From an uncultured Nitrospirales bacterium (GTDB taxonomy: Bacteria > Nitrospirota > Thermodesulfovibrionia > UBA6902 > BMS3Bbin08): a DNA stretch of 64,000 bases. The stretch spans positions 28,720 to 92,719 of the forward strand of contig CAZNPC010000001.1 in assembly GCA_964574765.1 (NCBI GenBank), read 5' to 3'. The notes under the pieces were generated by a model. The model saw only the letters and a program-made list of their open reading frames with translations. It was not told where the DNA came from and ran no database searches. Of this stretch, positions 2,923 to 60,157 are shown piece after piece (position 1 is the first letter of the stretch; every line of letters starts with the position of its first letter). The translations under genes and the position numbers were made by a program.

Positions 2923-3020
2923 TTAGCAGCGCATTGCAAAATTAACAATTATCAATTAACAATTAACATTTACCTGCCCCGTGTCCTGATCCGTCAGGAT
3001 TTACGGGGACAATTATCAAT

Positions 3021-4055: not shown

Positions 4056-4177
4056 CAAATAGCTCAAAGTTCATAGCTCATGGCTCATAGTACGGATAAA
4101 CAAAATAATTTGCTGTCGGTTATCAGTTATGTCTTTTTTGCTATGAGCTATAAACTATCAGCTATGAGCTTAAACAT
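4056..4177. repeat. intergenic repeat family A copy between purM and purN
   Basis: catagctcatggctcatagta ... gctatgagctataaactatcagctatgagct. The inverted AGCTCATAG/CTATGAGCT ends give a MITE/REP-like organisation. Confidence 0.5.
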
Positions 4178-17923: not shown

Positions 17924-17944
17924 GACTGAATTATTTAAACACCC

Positions 17945-18162
17945 TCTTAACCACTGAAAACACTAAAACCACAGAATTTGTAAAATTATTTTTAAAAATT
18001 TTCATTTTTTGCAAAGCCTTTTCAGCGTATTCAGTGACCTCAGTGCCTGCCCGCCAGTCTGTTTGGTGGGGTTCATATTTTCATAGTTAATCGCCAATTG
18101 TCCGTAGTTAGTAATTAGTTTTTACCTCTTTCACTATTTTTTTTCAGTGTACTCTGTGTTTT
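17945..18162. repeat. MITE-like intergenic element bounded by 15-bp perfect terminal inverted repeats (aaccactgaaaacac ... gtgttttcagtggtt)
   Basis: Inverted repeats at 17945-17959 and 18148-18162. The interior shares the block ttcagtg(a/c)ctcagtgcctgccc...gccagtctgt with 59838-59895. Confidence 0.55.
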
Positions 18163-18179
18163 CAGTGGTTACTATGAGC

Positions 18180-19106: not shown

Positions 19107-19261
19107 TTTCGCTCCTCAATATAGTTCATAGCCTTCGACCCGAGCTCAGGCCGAGGGTTTGATAGTTCATAGCTCATAGCTCATAGTAAAAACACTTAAA
19201 ATAGCCTTTAGTTCATAGTTGATATTATAGTTTATAGGTTAAACTTATAATAGCATATTCT
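19107..19261. repeat. intergenic repeat family A (AGCTCATAG / CTATGAGCT palindromic ends), copy between uxs and GT2
   Basis: The stretch gatagctcatagtaaaaaca(c/t)ttaaaatagcc(t/c)ttagttca(t/c)agtt(g/a)atattatagt is about 92% identical to 58606-58668. Related copies lie at 4056-4177 and 18164-18177 (perfect 14-bp palindrome CTATGAGCTCATAG). Confidence 0.6.
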
Positions 19262-50620: not shown

Positions 50621-51448
50621 TTAAATTACGTCTGCAAAATACCGCTCAACACGGCGAAAGTAAAATATACCACCCAGAAACACAACTAACCCGATTACCC
50701 CGGAGATGCCAAGCGACGTCCACGGGATAGGCATATGTCCGAGCACCGCAGGCCTGAAGGCCTCAATCACACCAGACATCGGATTCAGTGCAAGTATCCA
50801 GCTGTATTGTTCACCCAGGAGACTGCTCGGGTAGATAACAGGGGTTATGAACATCCATATCTGTATTATGAAAGGGATTGCATATTGTATGTCCCTGTAC
50901 CTCACGTTCATGGCACAAAACCACATTCCAAACCCTACAGCATTCATTATGGTGAGAAGCACTAAAACCGGAACCAGCAGTATTCCCGAACTTACAGAAA
51001 CTCCGTAATATATCATCATTATTCCAAGTACTACTGAAGCTATACAGAGATCTAAAAGTGCGGATATAGCAGGGCTGGCAGGCATAATTAGTCTGGGAAA
51101 ATATATCTTGGTAATCAGGTTCTTCTCAGTCACAACGCTGTTTGTGGATCGCCCGAGAACTGCCGAAAAATATTGCCATGGCAGGAGCCCAATATAGACA
51201 AAGATCGGATACGGCACTCCATCTGAAGGCATCTTTATAAGACGCCCAAATAGAACAGAAAAGACAAGCATTGTCAGCACCGGCTGCAATACAGCCCAAA
51301 TAACACCAAGGAATGTCTGCTTATACCTGACCTTGACATCTCTCCATGCAAGGAAATAAAGAAGTTCACGGAAGGCCCATATTTCACGGAAGTTGATAGA
51401 TATCCAGCCTTTTCTGGGTTTTATAATTATTTCGTTAACATTATCCAT
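50621..51448 (-). CDS. wzm: ABC-2 type transporter permease (Wzm, second system)
   Basis: Six TM helices. Start set at MDNVNEII (51448). The ORF-track start at 51535 would overlap fcl by about 95 nt. Confidence 0.75.
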
Positions 51449-52391
51449 TGTCAGCCATCCTGTTATCTCTATACCACCTGTAAGTCTCCTCAATTCCCTG
51501 TTGCAGGGTAGTCTTAGCCTTCCAGCCAAGTGCATTTATTTGAGTTACATCAAGGAGCTTTCTCTGCATTCCATCAGGTTTCGAGGTATCGAACTCAAGC
51601 CCGCCTTTATAACCGGTGATCTCCTTTATCATATGAGCCAGTTCATTTATGGATATATCCTCGCCAGTACCTACATTTATGATGTCTGGACTGTCATATT
51701 TTTCCATTAAGAATAGGCTTGCGTCTGCCAAATCATCAACATAAAGGAACTCTCTCCTTGGTTTTCCGGTGCCCCAAACGGTAATGGAAGGGTGTTTGTC
51801 CTCCTTCATCTGTACTGCTTCTACACATTTTCTTATTAATGCAGGAAGGACATGTGATGTTTCCAGATCGAAATTGTCATTAGGCCCATAAACGTTGGTA
51901 GGCATTATTGAGATAAAGTTAGTTCCATACTGTCTATTGTACGCCTGGCACATCCTGATACCGGCTATCTTTGCAATTGCGTATGGTTCATTGGTCGGCT
52001 CCAGTGGAGCAGTAAGCAGGTGTTCTTCCTTCATGGGCTGAGGACATAGTTTAGGATAAATGCAGGAACTGCCTAAAAAAAGAAGCTTTTTTACTCCATA
52101 AACATAAGCATTATGTATAACGTTAACCTGAATAGCGAGATTGCTGTATATAAAATCCGCGGGGTATGTGCTGTTTGCCAGTATACCCCCTACCCTGGCT
52201 GCAGCAAGAAACACATACTCAGGCCTCTCCCTTTCAAAGAATGCCTCTACCTCAGACTGATTGCATAGGTCCAGTTCTTTGTGTGTTTTATGGATAAGGT
52301 TGGTATGCCCCTCAGATTGCAATCTGCGAAGGATTGCAGACCCTACCATTCCCCTGTGGCCGGCAATGTAGATTTTAGAATCCTTCGTCAT
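51441..52391 (-). CDS. fcl: GDP-L-fucose synthase (GDP-4-keto-6-deoxy-D-mannose 3,5-epimerase/4-reductase)
   Basis: [19 protein letters not shown] ... [10 protein letters not shown] ... SSCIYPK motifs. Start set at MTKDSKIY. Directly downstream of gmd. Confidence 0.85.
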
Positions 52392-52525
52392 AAGCATTGT
52401 TAGAAGTATGAGGCATGAGGTTAGAGGGAAAAAGCTTGAGGTTAGAGGTTTAAGGCTTTTGCCTCCCTCTTCCAACCTCATTCCTCAAACATATTTCCTT
52501 AGTCCTAAAATCTCAAAACTCAATC

Positions 52526-52915
52526 TCATTTCACCTCAAATCTCTTTCTCCCCCTTACTGCATTCATTAATCCGTTTAGTTTGCGGTCTATCTCTTCTCC
52601 TTTTATTCTTACAGTGTTAGACTCATCTTCAGAAAATAACTTTCTTCGTCGATAAATTTCATTGAGAGTTATCGTTTCGTAAAGAGAGCCTTGAGCAATA
52701 CTTAAATATTGAAGAAACTCTTTCTTGTGTTGACGACCTTTTCCTTCTGCTATGTTTTGTGGTACAGAAGTTACAGACCCTTCCATCTGAGAAACTAAAC
52801 GCATATGTTTATTGAAGGGGATTTTTTCCAGCAATCCCAAAACATAATTTGCCAACTCCATTGCCAATTGCCAAACTTCTAATTTCTCAAATGGAAATAT
52901 ATATATTCCTTTCAT
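52526..52915 (-). CDS. four-helix-bundle protein (23S rRNA intervening-sequence protein family), second copy
   Basis: FEKLEVWQLAMEL ... NIAEGKGRQHKKEF ... AQGSLYE. RBS GGAGGT supplied by the first unit of the adjacent 40-bp tandem repeat. Confidence 0.7.
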   Translation of the reverse strand: MKGIYIFPFEKLEVWQLAMELANYVLGLLEKIPFNKHMRLVSQMEGSVTSVPQNIAEGKGRQHKKEFLQYLSIAQGSLYETITLNEIYRRRKLFSEDESNTVRIKGEEIDRKLNGLMNAVRGRKRFEVK

Positions 52916-52920
52916 ACTTT

Positions 52921-53180
52921 ACCTCCAGCCTCTGCCCTCTGTCCTCTTCTGTTATGTTTTACCTCCAGCCTCTAACCTCTGTCCTCTTCTGTTATGTTTT
53001 ACCTCCAGCCTCTAACCTCTGTCCTCTTCTGTTATGTTTTACCTCCAGCCTCTGCCCTCTGTCCTCTTCTGTTATGTTTTACCTCCAGCCTCTGCCCTCT
53101 GTCCTCTTCTATTATGTTTTACCTCCAACCTCGGCCTCAACCTTGTTTTTATCCTCATCCTCCAACCTCTGTCCGCTTCT
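52921..53180. repeat. 40-bp tandem repeat, 5 near-perfect plus about 1.5 degenerate units (acctccagcctctgccctctgtcctcttctgttatgtttt)
   Basis: Units at 52921, 52961, 53001, 53041, 53081. Units 2-3 carry the tctaacctct variant. The 40-bp period is not a multiple of 3. Lies between gmd and the second 4HB gene. Confidence 0.9.
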
Positions 53181-53210
53181 TTAAACTCAGCCTTGGCCTC
53201 AGCCTCAGCT

Positions 53211-54353
53211 TTATCTATTTGTCAGTTTATTCTTCGTCCAATGTATGCCCTTCCCCTGTAAAATCTTATTGCCCGCTCCCGGTGCGTCTATGCCGATCAT
53301 TTCCATATCTGCGTCTACCATTATCTTAACTAACTCTTTAAAATTTACTTTTGGCTGCCAGCCGAGTTGTTTCGTAGCCTTTGATACGTCCGCTAATAGG
53401 TAATCTGTTTCTGTGGGACGAAAATACCTTGGGTCTATCTCGATCAGAACATCTCCGATGTTGATGTTAGAGGTCGGGGGTTGGAGGTTAGAGGCTAAGG
53501 ATTTAACAATGCCTTTTTCCTTAACTCCCTTCCCCTGCCATTCAAGTTCGATTCCGGCATAACTGAAGGCCAACTCGGCAAATTCTTTGACCGAATGGCT
53601 TTCACCCGTACCTATGACATAATCATCAGGCTCATCCTGCTGAAGCATCAGCCATTGGCATTCAACATACTCAGGCGCAAAACCCCAGTCTCTTTTGGCA
53701 TCCAGATTTCCAAGATATAGTTTTTTCTGCTTATTGGCGTTTATATTGGCAATGGCCCTGGTAATTTTTCTGGTTACAAAAGTCTCCCCTCTTCTCGGTG
53801 ATTCGTGATTGAACAATATGCCGTTACACGCAAACATGTTATAACCTTCTCGATAATTAACTGTCATCCAGTATGCATATGCTTTAGCGCATGCATACGG
53901 ACTTCGAGGCGCAAAAATAGTCTTTTCGTTCTGAGGGGGAGGAGCTGAGCCGAACATCTCACTGCTTGATGCCTGATAAAATCTCGTTTTTATCCCGCTT
54001 CTTTTTACAGCCTCAAGTAATCGTGTTGAACCCAGGGCAGTTACTTCACCCGTATACTCAGGAATATCAAAGCTTACCCTTACATGGCTCTGCGCGCCAA
54101 GATGATATATCTCGTCCGGCTTGATGTTATAAACCAGATTTGTCAATTGCCCGGCGTCAGTAAGGTCACCATAGTGGAGCAATAACCTGGCGCCTGATAT
54201 ATGCGGGTCAACATAGAGGTGGTCTATTCTTCCTGTGTTGAATGTGCTTGCTCGACGGATAAGTCCGTGAACCTCGTAGCCTTTTGATATGAGCAATTCG
54301 GTCAGATATGAGCCATCCTGCCCTGTAATCCCTGTGATCAATGCCTTTTTCAT
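53211..54353 (-). CDS. gmd: GDP-mannose 4,6-dehydratase
   Basis: [47 protein letters not shown], a diagnostic N-terminus. 380 aa. GGAGGG RBS. Confidence 0.9.
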
Positions 54354-54557: not shown

Positions 54558-54662
54558 CATTCGGGTTATCAAAACCCGTTCTCTTGAACAAGTTCACAGT
54601 TTGCCGCGACATAATAAACTTTAGCCGTTAAAGAGACAGCTAAATTCAATCTCTGTTTATGA

Positions 54663-55154
54663 CTATGCCCTTGTCAATATCGCCCTATCAACGATAACGC
54701 TTGACTGATATTCAATAGCTGACAATAGCAGGACAATCCTTTCGCTTCCATTCACTTCCCTTTCGAATATTCCGGTGAAATCTTTAAGCGGCCCTTCAGC
54801 GATCCTGACCCTGTCTCCGCGTTCAAAATTCACAGGTTTCATAGCTATTACTCCCTCATGTTCCTGCGACTTGATAAAATCAATGATATTCTCTGAAACC
54901 GGCCATGGTTTTTCTGTATCGCCTACTACTTTTTTTATGCCTCTTGTGTACCTTATCATCCATAGATGCTTTTCAGGTTCAAACCGTGCAAATATATAAC
55001 AGGGGAATAATGACGAGACAGTCTCTCTGTATTTTCCCCTTATAAACCTCTTCTGTTGAAGCTGGGGGCTGTAAACCGTCAGTCCCGCCTCTTTCAGGCT
55101 GTTTATGACATATCCTTCTCTTTTAGGTTTTGTATAAATTGAATACCAGTTCAT
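54663..55154 (-). CDS. NusG-family paralogue (RfaH/UpxY/LoaP-like specialised transcription antiterminator)
   Basis: 163 aa. NGN-domain start MNWYSIYTKPKRE...V...L and C-terminal KOW-like GDRVRIAEGPLKDFTGIFE. Sits at the head of the long operon. Confidence 0.7.
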   Translation of the reverse strand: MNWYSIYTKPKREGYVINSLKEAGLTVYSPQLQQKRFIRGKYRETVSSLFPCYIFARFEPEKHLWMIRYTRGIKKVVGDTEKPWPVSENIIDFIKSQEHEGVIAMKPVNFERGDRVRIAEGPLKDFTGIFEREVNGSERIVLLLSAIEYQSSVIVDRAILTRA

Positions 55155-55237
55155 GGTTCGACAGGCTCACCATCGTGGATAGTTCAAGCTTCAAACCTCC
55201 ATCCTCAAGCCTCTTGCCTCACAGTTCATAGCTGTTT

Positions 55238-55804
55238 TCATTTATTTACCGGATATATACTTTTTATTAATTCCTTATCAACCCCAAGGGCTAGTAATTT
55301 TTGATACACGCTGTCCCTTCTCATATGCGTGGTGATAATTATGTAATCAAAATCAACTTCATTGACATTGCCAAAGGGCATAACAACTGTTTTGAAAAAT
55401 TTCCTGCCTTTTCCCTCATCATCCAATACGCCCAGAAAATTTAGATTACACTCCTGAAGAGACAGGTATGCAATCTCTGCAACCTCATCAGCTCCTGCAA
55501 ATACGACTCTCTTGACGCCACTATCCTGTAGTTTGATGAATAACTGCCTGAAATCCCTTCTTGCCTCACGGAATACCCTGTTATAGTTTTGCAGAAGATG
55601 GTATGTTAAACGGCTTTTTTCAGTAAAGCCCTTTGCAGTGAGAAAGTATGCATATCTTTTGGATGGAATATTCTTTATTGTTACAAAGCCCTTTGAGATA
55701 AGGTTTTTTATGTACGAATTAACAAGACCGAGTGCCAAATTCAGTCTTTTACTCAAATCTCTTTGAGATAGAGACTCGCCCCTTGAAATTTCATCAAGTA
55801 GCAT
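55238..55804 (-). CDS. winged-helix DNA-binding protein with C-terminal Rossmann-like (CoA_binding_3 / sugar-transferase N-domain-like) domain, putative locus regulator
   Basis: N-terminal wHTH (LSQRDLSKRLNLALGLVNSYIKNLISKGFV). C-terminal KRVVFAGADEVAEIAYL...NFLGVLDDEGKG...VDFDYIIITT pattern. Start set at ATG 55804. The GTG start at 55864 lies inside the conserved palindromic operator. Confidence 0.5.
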   Translation of the reverse strand: MLLDEISRGESLSQRDLSKRLNLALGLVNSYIKNLISKGFVTIKNIPSKRYAYFLTAKGFTEKSRLTYHLLQNYNRVFREARRDFRQLFIKLQDSGVKRVVFAGADEVAEIAYLSLQECNLNFLGVLDDEGKGRKFFKTVVMPFGNVNEVDFDYIIITTHMRRDSVYQKLLALGVDKELIKSIYPVNK

Positions 55805-55808
55805 TAAA

Positions 55809-55915
55809 GACTTGTAACCATCCTGATTATCAGGCTTTTTATCGTTCAGATTGTGAACGTTCACAATTTGAACATATCACATTTTAAATCAATTGTCAAG
55901 TAAAAAAAAGGAGGG
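55809..55915 (-). promoter_or_regulatory. sigma70-like promoter (TTGACA-N17-TGaTATGTT) with the 12-bp perfect palindrome GTGAACGTTCAC at about +1, upstream of the regulator/nusG-like genes; copy 2 of a duplicated module
   Basis: Minus-strand read: ccttttttttacTTGACAattgatttaaaatgTGaTATGTTcaaattGTGAACGTTCACaatctgaacgat. About 90% identical to 34449-34555 over about 107 bp. Confidence 0.55.
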
Positions 55916-58023: not shown

Positions 58024-58146
58024 TCCTGCTCCGCAGAATAGTTCATAGTTGTCCCCGCAAATCCTGATGGATTAAGACGCGGGGCAGGCCGTTGTTCATT
58101 GTTAATTGCTAATTGATAATTTTTCATTTTGCAATGTTATTTTCTA

Positions 58147-58587: not shown

Positions 58588-58714
58588 GGTTAATCACCAA
58601 CTCTTAGTTGATAGCTCATAGTAAAAACATTTAAAATAGCCCTTAGTTCACAGTTAATATTATAGTCTATTCGCTACGAGCTATGAGCCAAGAGCTATCA
58701 GCTATTCACGTCCT
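58588..58714. repeat. intergenic repeat family A copy between rfbC and rfbA
   Basis: See 19107-19261. It also carries cgagctatgagccaagagctatcagct, matching 4150-4177 gctatgagctataaactatcagctatgagct. Confidence 0.6.
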
Positions 58715-59779: not shown

Positions 59780-60102
59780 TAATGTCTCTGTTTATTATTC
59801 ACAACAACTCTTCGACTTACTGTTCTCTCTTTTTTCAGTGTGTTCAGTGCCTCAGTGCCTGCCCCTGCCTACCGGCAGGCAGGCGCCAGTCTGTGCTTGC
59901 CTGCCAGTTTATTCTTGTCTGCCAGTCCGTTTGGCATGATGGCATGGTGGCGGGGTTATTAATTCGACAATATTATTATGATAGCTGAAACACCCCATAA
60001 CTTCAAATAAAATGGCATACAGAAAAATATACATATCCATTTACTTTAATTAAATTAACAAAAACAATTGATCAGTCAATTCAGTATCACATTGGACAGG
60101 AC

Positions 60103-60138
60103 AAAAAAAGGGTGTTCCGACTTTTATCGGAACACCCT
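60103..60138 (-). terminator. Rho-independent terminator downstream of the tetrahaem cytochrome gene
   Basis: Minus-strand read: GGGTGTTCCGA-ataaaag-TCGGAACACCC followed by T7. 11-bp perfect stem. Confidence 0.75.
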
Positions 60139-60157
60139 CAAATAATGCTGATCAATC

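Follow-up and report, generated by a model that had tools for sequence, protein, structure and literature searches.

Heptamer repeats, expanded into a 40-nt tandem array, bracket a four-helix-bundle gene inserted between gmd and fcl in an uncultured Nitrospirales bacterium

In an uncultured Nitrospirales bacterium, a gene for a four-helix-bundle (4HB) protein of family PF05635 lies between gmd (GDP-mannose 4,6-dehydratase) and fcl (GDP-L-fucose synthase type), and the spacer in front of it is filled by a tandem array of 40-nt units. We analysed this array within a stretch of 64,000 nucleotides (contig CAZNPC010000001.1 of assembly GCA_964574765.1, positions 28,720 to 92,719 of the forward strand), which we call the window and whose coordinates we use throughout. 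We hypothesize, with a probability that we put at roughly 60%, that the array is the upstream arm of an intervening-sequence-like cassette around the inserted PF05635 gene, which would be co-transcribed with its neighbours, would pair its two arms and would undergo RNase III-type processing. The parts of this hypothesis differ in strength: the cassette architecture and the insertion are highly probable, and RNase III-type processing with control of the 4HB and fcl genes, which we draw from analogy and from modelled folds, is tentative. A first-pass annotation of the same sequence had described about six 40-bp repeats that supply the ribosome-binding site of the 4HB gene, with inverse fragments on its other side. 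It missed that the 40-mer is itself a higher-order repeat of GAGGNNN heptamers, and that the array forms one arm, and the inverse fragments the other, of a single bracket enclosing an inserted gene cassette. The locus is better described as an intervening sequence (IVS)-like 4HB cassette whose 5' arm appears to have expanded recently into a 40-nt minisatellite.

The array is a higher-order heptamer repeat

The 4HB gene (52526-52915), its flanking genes and both arms are read from the minus strand. Its 129-residue product matches PF05635 over the full model (E 1e-29), TIGR02436 "four helix bundle protein" and the structure of the pentameric Xcc0516 (PDB 2GSC, E 4e-16), and the gene is described as one for a "23S rRNA intervening-sequence protein" placed between two sugar-synthesis genes. 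The upstream flank of the insertion is gmd (53211-54353; profile match and junction comparison) and the downstream flank is fcl (51441-52391; profile match). Among named organisms, the best matches of gmd come from Desulfobacteria, Nitrospirae, Brocadia and Thermodesulfovibrionia. The 295-nt spacer between gmd and the 4HB gene is wholly occupied by 40-nt units and degenerate copies of them. Tandem Repeats Finder (TRF) reports a period of 40 at 52918-53136 (5.5 copies, 96% matches, score 389), by far the top-scoring array of the window, and consensus matching places the unit five times head to tail at 52918-53117 with 0, 2, 2, 0 and 1 mismatches, where none is expected by chance (100 shuffles). 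These five near-identical units, recovered also by a repeat search, form the expanded part of the 5' arm. The repeat search further found in-register copies of 66% identity on both sides of the array: the copy next to gmd is a degenerate unit, and that next to the gene extends into the start of the open reading frame (ORF). The degenerate part of the 5' arm (53118-53210) consists of about two diverged units (53118-53178) and of GCTGAGG-type heptamers directly after the gmd stop codon. The tandem repeat of the first-pass annotation is thus real, and so are the two sequence variants that it distinguished: on the plus strand, units 1, 4 and 5 carry GC where units 2 and 3 carry TT, and a further C>T change is present in one unit.

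In the direction of transcription, the sequence of the unit is ACATAAYAGAAGAGGACAGAGGNNAGAGGCTGGAGGTAAA, which resolves into four GAGGNNN heptamers (AGAGGAC, AGAGGKK, AGAGGCT and GGAGGTA) followed by a 12-nt tail, TAAAACATAAYAGAA. Two other identities considered for the array could be rejected, in agreement with the first-pass annotation: it is not a CRISPR array, since the units are contiguous at a start-to-start spacing of exactly 40 with no spacers, and it is non-coding, since the period is not a multiple of 3 and each unit contains TAA in two frames. Three consecutive heptamers, (GAGGNNN)3 at no more than one mismatch, occur 21 times in the window against 0.2 expected, and all 21 matches fall in four places: the array itself, the spacer that follows the 4HB gene (both orientations), a stretch of the gmd coding sequence, and 55189-55220. 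The last is a (GAGGNNN)5 tract on the minus strand of the same operon, upstream of an RfaH-like gene and without a 4HB gene.

Each unit contains one GGAGGT and three AGAGG sites, which gives the 5' arm about 20 Shine-Dalgarno (SD)-like GGAGG/AGAGG sites, only the last of which is followed by a start codon. At that junction, which reads GGAGGTAAAGT-ATG, the last unit provides the SD sequence of the 4HB gene: by reading of the sequence, GGAGGT (52921-52926) lies 5 nt from the ATG (52915-52913), or 6 nt when counted from GGAGG. We also observed that a non-heptamer 15-mer of the unit (mRNA sense AAAACATAACAGAAG, e.g. at 52946-52960) matches 14 of the 15 positions of the ORF segment AAAACATAGCAGAAG (52744-52758), which encodes QNIAEG, the signature motif of the 4HB family; none of 300 dinucleotide shuffles of the ORF reached this score.

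Complementary heptamers follow the gene

Directly 3' of the 4HB stop codon lie degenerate GA-rich heptamers in sense orientation (52459-52525), and these are followed by the 3' arm (52392-52458), which consists of CU-rich heptamers complementary to the array and ends at the start codon of fcl (52391-52389). The latter gene has no SD sequence of its own. The order along the mRNA is therefore the gmd stop codon, about 295 nt of purine-rich sense heptamers, the 4HB ORF, 67 nt of sense heptamers, 63 nt of CU-rich antisense heptamers and the fcl AUG. The inverse fragments beyond the gene that the first-pass annotation had noticed are confirmed, close to the position given there (52425-52450), as GAGGTTAGAGG on the plus strand at 52417-52427 and 52438-52448; at no more than one mismatch this motif has 9 matches in the window against 0.86 expected. 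Both CCUCUAACCUC sites within the 3' arm are perfect matches to the TT-variant units, so that the variant TT/GC positions decide whether GAGGTTAGAGG is perfectly complementary to them.

A third copy of GAGGTTAGAGG (53484-53494) lies inside gmd, in a CU-rich, heptamer-like tract of the coding sequence (53463-53496) that encodes the loop SNLQPPTSN and holds a 13-nt perfect complement of the TT-variant units. We considered pairing of this tract with the array as a part of the mechanism and downgraded it, as the same Ser/Leu/Thr/Pro-rich loop is also present in relatives that have no cassette; to judge from the sequences, the tract is probably not involved. The variable surface loop of gmd is Ser/Leu/Thr-rich even where the 4HB cassette is absent and is enlarged in some relatives (SSASSLQPPTSSLS; about 920-1070 in the loci L022 and L023), and in L064 (638-740), compared with the near-identical L066 (1090-1190), a hairpin of GTTCAAR heptamers takes its place in frame.

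Different cassettes and empty sites at the same junction

We assembled loci of relatives of the window 4HB protein (38-83% identity) by exact-protein look-ups and one metagenome scan, and designate loci by L numbers. L103 and L101, from a marine metagenome, encode a gmd that is 91% identical to that of the window at the amino acid level and 87% at the nucleotide level. Here the gmd-4HB spacer is 72 nt of GAGG-type heptamers, and the same site holds a different 4HB gene (39% identical), followed by CU-rich heptamers and the orthologous fcl. The first 28 nt or so after the gmd stop codon of the window are still homologous to L103, and it is there, inside the heptamers, that nucleotide homology to these two loci stops. 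In L104 and L105, where gmd is 86% and 82% identical, the next epimerase gene lies 3 nt from gmd, with neither a 4HB gene nor repeats.

The junction recurs among the relatives: of the 13 non-redundant proteins closest to the window 4HB protein, 10 are encoded next to gmd, an fcl-type gene or both, and in the loci of the gmd|fcl type the gmd product is only 57-71% identical to that of the window versus 62-80% for the 4HB protein. Other close relatives (76-77% identical), which have 3 to 5 heptamers, are located upstream of mazG. For most relatives the only known sequence is a contig of about 1 kb, and two Logan assemblies of the window locus end inside the array, both of which are consistent with repeat arms that break assemblies.

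Repeat brackets at related 4HB genes

Bracketing was quantified over 63 non-redundant loci, with 74 neighbouring genes of the same loci as controls. Read directly, nearly all relatives have sense repeats that abut the start codon and complementary repeats that abut or overlap the stop codon. The number of inverted 7-mers shared between the 130-nt flanks has a median of 7 for 4HB genes versus 2 for the controls (Mann-Whitney p = 5e-7), while direct sharing of 7-mers is the same for both. The minimum free energy (MFE) folds contain a median of 35 base pairs linking the two flanks versus 17.6 with dinucleotide-shuffled flanks (Wilcoxon p = 4e-9), and in 22 of the 63 loci, versus about 7 expected, the real flanks surpass every one of 8 shuffles. 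RNAduplex between the flanks gave a median z of -1.8; since dinucleotide shuffles preserve the purine/pyrimidine asymmetry, which is itself the signal, we used 7-mer sharing and MFE bracket counts instead. TRF arrays cover 10.2% of the bases within 200 nt of 4HB genes versus 2.0% elsewhere in the loci.

At least five motifs (GAGGNNN, CTTGAGGAGCGCTTCG, GTTGTTGG, GTTGAGAGTTG and AGTAGTTR) switch on both sides together between clades, such that 5' GAGGNNN goes with 3' NNNCCTC, CTTGAGGAGCGCTTCG with CGAAGCGCTCCTCAAG, GTTGTTGG with CCAACAAC and GTTGAGAGTTG with CTCTCAAC. The AGTAGTTR type is found in the window itself, at a second 4HB gene (4HB gene 1, 33081-33461; PF05635 E 5e-33) that has arrays of such 8-mers and their complements on both sides (32951-33579, minus strand). 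These 8-mers are not SD-like, and a separate GGGAGG precedes the ATG. The ribosome-binding role that the first-pass annotation gave to the repeat therefore holds for the last unit of the 40-nt array and is not a general one. When the 56 genes of the window are ranked by the complementarity of their flanks, both 4HB genes are among the top five (second, and tied third); one gene of the sugar-nucleotide dehydratase type, with heptamer arrays on both sides, outranks them. Higher-order units have arisen independently elsewhere, with lengths of 47 nt (3.2 copies) in L031, 50 nt in L076 and 48 nt in L077. In L064 (1397-1500) and L066 (1840-1931) it is the 3' arm that has grown, with at least 13 CTCCAAC heptamers after the 4HB stop codon, and growth is therefore possible in either arm.

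Copy number and distribution of the unit

The first-pass annotation had raised variation in copy number as a possibility, and copy number does differ between assemblies. Five units are present in the window and in L002, a locus of the same sequence that is possibly not an independent observation; L001, from another assembly and sample and 99.8% identical over 3.8 kb, has four. The units of L001 read T-GC, C-GC, C-TC, C-GC, versus T-GC, C-GC, C-TT, C-TT, C-GC in the window. The distinct TC variant and the flanking single-nucleotide polymorphisms (SNPs) of L001 argue for a real second allele, and collapse by the assembler could still account for its four-unit state.

The genome-wide search for the unit that the first-pass annotation had recommended was run on 185,579 species-representative genomes, a set to which the source genome does not belong; the unit junction was not found there, and the scan returned only two unrelated GAGG-heptamer hairpins, one in a deltaproteobacterial and one in a Sumerlaeota metagenome-assembled genome (MAG). 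Among 105 loci, the unit junction is confined to contigs of the window organism, and within the window the unit is confined to one locus. Its units being 95-100% identical to the consensus, the unit being private to the organism and a sister population having 4 rather than 5 copies, the sequences suggest that the expansion is recent; it looks lineage-private. The hits in the two MAGs (L003 2170-2260 and L004 6330-6400) are tracts of GAGGCAA/GAGGCTG heptamers that end in GGAGGTAAAA, followed in L003 by their complement to give a hairpin; no 4HB gene was seen in the roughly 900 nt around these matches, in which no search aimed at one was made.

Predicted folding and a proposed mechanism

The array alone is predicted to be almost unstructured (-39.9 kcal/mol for 316 nt, z = -1.9), and the 3' spacer alone is predicted to form a hairpin (-44.3 kcal/mol, z = -3.2). 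Folding of the whole 836-nt stretch (53215-52380) yields 34 predicted long-range pairs of 53122-53186, in the degenerate part of the 5' arm, with 52387-52427 (z = -3.5). All 34 are present in both the MFE and the centroid structure, and the stem that they form includes the fcl start codon. Between gmd and fcl the minus strand has no terminator-like site; one weak promoter-like site was noted (53140-53111), and counts of promoter-like sites are not above those in shuffles. No Rfam family reached threshold anywhere in the window, the sole weak matches on the 3' arm being to plant miRNA hairpins (E about 0.2).

From these observations, we propose the following sequence of events. A PF05635 gene was very probably inserted between gmd and fcl along with short degenerate repeat arrays at its flanks, the GAGGNNN heptamers 5' of the gene and their complements 3' of it forming the two arms of one bracket. 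In this lineage, slippage or unequal recombination raised a 40-nt block of four heptamers and the 12-nt tail to five copies. The cassette would be co-transcribed with gmd and fcl; in the transcript, the purine-rich 5' arm would be little structured by itself, with its last SD-like site serving as the ribosome-binding site of the 4HB gene, and the CU-rich, anti-SD-like 3' arm would have two alternative partners, the local GA tract and, on the far side of the ORF, the 5' arm. Long-range pairing would create a double-stranded stem that also encloses the fcl start codon, and this stem may be a substrate of RNase III, as the analogy to rRNA intervening sequences with an ORF of the same family would suggest. 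Cleavage would separate the three cistrons and might set the translation of the 4HB gene and of fcl. Extra units would mainly supply alternative pairing registers, and a selected role for the five-fold expansion itself is doubtful.

Several observations count against this explanation. In the thermodynamic ensemble, the 63-nt CU arm is shared roughly equally among three partners (about 13 nt with the degenerate 5' heptamers, about 18 nt with the array and about 14.5 nt with the local GA tract), which makes the long-range stem only one fold among several in competition. A ribosome translating the ORF would disrupt it. In the survey of relatives, shuffled flanks also pair end to end often, and only 22 of 63 loci beat every one of their 8 shuffles. 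Other spacers of the window contain heptamer arrays but no 4HB gene; enriched as they are at 4HB genes, the repeats are therefore not confined to them. Finally, the difference of four versus five units comes from short-read metagenome assemblies, and two other assemblies break inside the array.

Alternative explanations

The best-surviving alternative, a serious one that we nevertheless hold at well under even odds, is that the 40-nt amplification is a neutral minisatellite, a by-product of replication slippage in a spacer rich in repeats, with no selected role, and that the SD sequence in its last unit is incidental. The near-identity of the units and the restriction of the unit junction to contigs of the window organism are as this alternative would have them, the close relative L103 manages with a 72-nt spacer, and units of other lengths have arisen independently elsewhere. 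What speaks against it, weakly, as only two sites are concerned, is that the GC/TT positions coincide exactly with those on which perfect complementarity to the two CCUCUAACCUC sites depends, which would not be expected of an irrelevant sequence. The alternative is compatible with a cassette origin of the locus and contests only a function of the expansion.

It is unlikely, though not negligibly so, that the heptamer arrays act chiefly at the DNA level, as substrates for gain, exchange and loss of 4HB cassettes by homologous or slipped recombination or by an unknown recombinase, RNA structure being secondary. The different 4HB gene at the gmd|fcl site of a close relative, with homology breaking inside the heptamers, the empty sites of L104 and L105, the presence of 10 of the 13 closest relatives at gmd|fcl-type junctions, in genomes with a gmd of only 57-71% identity, and the many contigs of about 1 kb, where assemblies break at the flanks of the cassette, all point in this direction. 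However, in the loci examined the cassette is not accompanied by a recombinase or transposase gene, we identified no target-site duplication, and gmd, 4HB and fcl could also travel as one block.

Somewhat less likely again is translational tuning, in line with the suggestion of the first-pass annotation that copy number could modulate expression; here the roughly 20 orphan SD-like sites would be standby or loading sites for ribosomes, or decoys, and copy number would set the translation of the 4HB gene. The SD-like sites in every unit, the predicted single-strandedness of the tract, the lack of a start codon after the internal sites and the variable copy number would all suit such a role, but in other clades the repeats on either side of the 4HB gene do not resemble SD sequences, and same-clade relatives have only 3 to 5 heptamers.

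We consider it improbable that the array serves as a set of protein-binding sites, its GGA/GAGG motifs being candidate sites for an RNA- or DNA-binding protein, whether the 4HB pentamer or a CsrA-like regulator, in autoregulation or titration. In its favour, the repeat motif tends to differ between 4HB clades and the 15-mer of the unit resembles the QNIAEG-coding segment of the ORF; yet a 4HB gene that is only 39% identical sits among the same GAGG-type repeats, the two 4HB genes of one genome have different repeats, and GAGG arrays occur without a 4HB gene. Lastly, that the array was made or mis-sized by an assembler is scarcely credible: two Logan assemblies do stop inside it, but the window and L002 span it with unique flanks, L001 provides a distinct allele from another sample (four units, the TC variant, flanking SNPs), and internal variants break the periodicity and so make correct assembly feasible.

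Relation to known systems

The closest known system to the cassette that we propose is the ORF-bearing 23S rRNA intervening sequence of Coxiella and Leptospira. The IVS of Coxiella burnetii is 428 nt long and contains an S23p ORF of the PF05635 family; its ends are inverted repeats forming a stem that is cut by RNase III, and an AG-rich SD region with two or three tandem GACAGAT heptamers, depending on the strain, precedes the ATG (PMC4990558). The window cassette carries the same S23p/PF05635 ORF family, has inverted repeats that enclose the ORF (the stem being a predicted one with competing folds), has an AG-rich SD region within its 5' arm and has variable heptamers before the ATG, with five versus four higher-order units here and 3 to 5 heptamers in relatives. 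In contrast, the IVS lies in the 23S rRNA gene (helix 25 or 45) and the window cassette in an mRNA operon, between gmd and fcl, the window having no rRNA at all; the cassette is therefore not a member of the IVS class in the strict sense. Its arms are moreover long arrays, the 5' arm measuring about 295 nt with a 40-nt higher-order repeat, and its ORF, preceded by a strong SD sequence, is part of a large and well-conserved clade, whereas the Coxiella ORF is reported to be decaying.

Heptamer direct repeats (TAACTGA) that end just before start codons are known from Beggiatoaceae, Cyanobacteria and Bacteroidetes, with indels in steps of 7 nt between strains and occasional reverse-orientation copies inside ORFs (PMC4679880); a term search of that paper found no mention of the PF05635 family. 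Like these repeats and the short tandemly repeated repetitive (STRR) sequences of cyanobacteria, the window array consists of tandem intergenic 7-nt units aimed at a start codon, the last heptamer ending 5 nt before the ATG, and the window has several other heptamer arrays. It differs in its SD-like motif GAGGNNN (other window arrays having GCTATGA, CAATTGA or AATTAAC), in the organisation of its heptamers into a 40-nt higher-order unit, and in the pairing of such arrays with complementary ones across one gene family.

Mycobacterial interspersed repetitive units (MIRUs) are bacterial intergenic minisatellites, or variable-number tandem repeats (VNTRs), with units of about 40 nt arranged head to tail in operons. 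The window array resembles them in its head-to-tail units of about 40 nt between co-oriented operon genes and in its population-variable copy number, as judged from short-read alleles, but in the sequences searched its unit is found at one locus rather than dispersed, and it has no unit-spanning small ORFs coupled to the flanking genes. Avd, an accessory protein of diversity-generating retroelements, is a relative within PF05635. It shares with the window protein a fold family of four-helix-bundle pentamers that acts with structured RNA; the 4HB protein here is, in contrast, associated with short tandem repeats, and neither a reverse transcriptase nor a template/variable repeat pair was noticed in the window, where no search aimed at them was made. 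Other settings reported for PF05635 genes are cas loci (PMC3936711) and the rRNA insertions of candidate phyla radiation (CPR) bacteria (PMC11270868). In the literature searched, to which subscription literature did not belong, we found no description of non-rRNA PF05635 genes as repeat-bracketed cassettes.

Other repeats and features in the window

Tandem heptamers of other sequence (GCTATGA, CACTGAA, CAATTGA, AATTAAC) occur in many spacers of the window, at 678-710, 2940-2972, 4056-4177, 17924-18179, 19107-19261, 58024-58146, 58588-58714 and 59780-60157. At 4056-4177, two inverted arrays give a strong hairpin (z = -5.0) that may correspond to the 4HB bracket without its ORF. The window also contains two copies of a conserved hairpin rich in GC, GCCCCGYGUC...CAGGAUUURCGGGGAC, at 2972-3012 on the plus strand and 58046-58086 on the minus strand, each adjoining heptamers of the AATTAAC/TTGTTAA type.

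A 68-bp duplicate of 93% identity (34449-34516 and 55809-55876) takes in the first 19 or so codons of a winged-helix gene (55238-55864), together with a promoter-like TTGACA-17-TATGTT and an inverted TGAACGTTCA motif; the other copy precedes the first wzm gene, in a different reading frame. The 653-nt spacer 34462-35114 contains apparent glycosyltransferase remnants, judged by eye, with a GT2-like N-terminal reading that ends in a stop codon. An RfaH/UpxY-like NusG paralogue (54663-55154), below the curated cut-offs of those models, heads the polysaccharide cluster, and a terminator-like hairpin (54620-54644) lies between it and gmd.

Implications

The PF05635 family has thousands of members, and we know of no function for them outside diversity-generating retroelements. 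Intervening sequences in rRNA and the heptamer repeats of bacteria are long-standing puzzles in their own right. The locus described here combines the same ORF family with a variable heptamer bracket in an mRNA operon, with occupied, swapped and empty sites in close relatives, and so ties the three together. It offers a concrete, testable system for RNA processing, for expression and for the binding of repeats by protein. In practical terms, such arrays break short-read assemblies and put a structured RNA of variable length before genes of polysaccharide synthesis.

The more interesting result would be a generalisation to the whole 4HB gene family. We suggest, as a conjecture on which we would not yet bet, that non-rRNA PF05635 genes are widespread intervening-sequence-like cassettes with clade-specific inverted repeat arms, located between co-transcribed genes, gained, lost and swapped via their arms and excised or processed from RNA by RNase III, one clade of which markedly prefers the gmd|fcl junction. 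If this is true, rRNA intervening sequences would be a special case of the family, and the ORF-less heptamer hairpins of such genomes would be empty versions of the same element.

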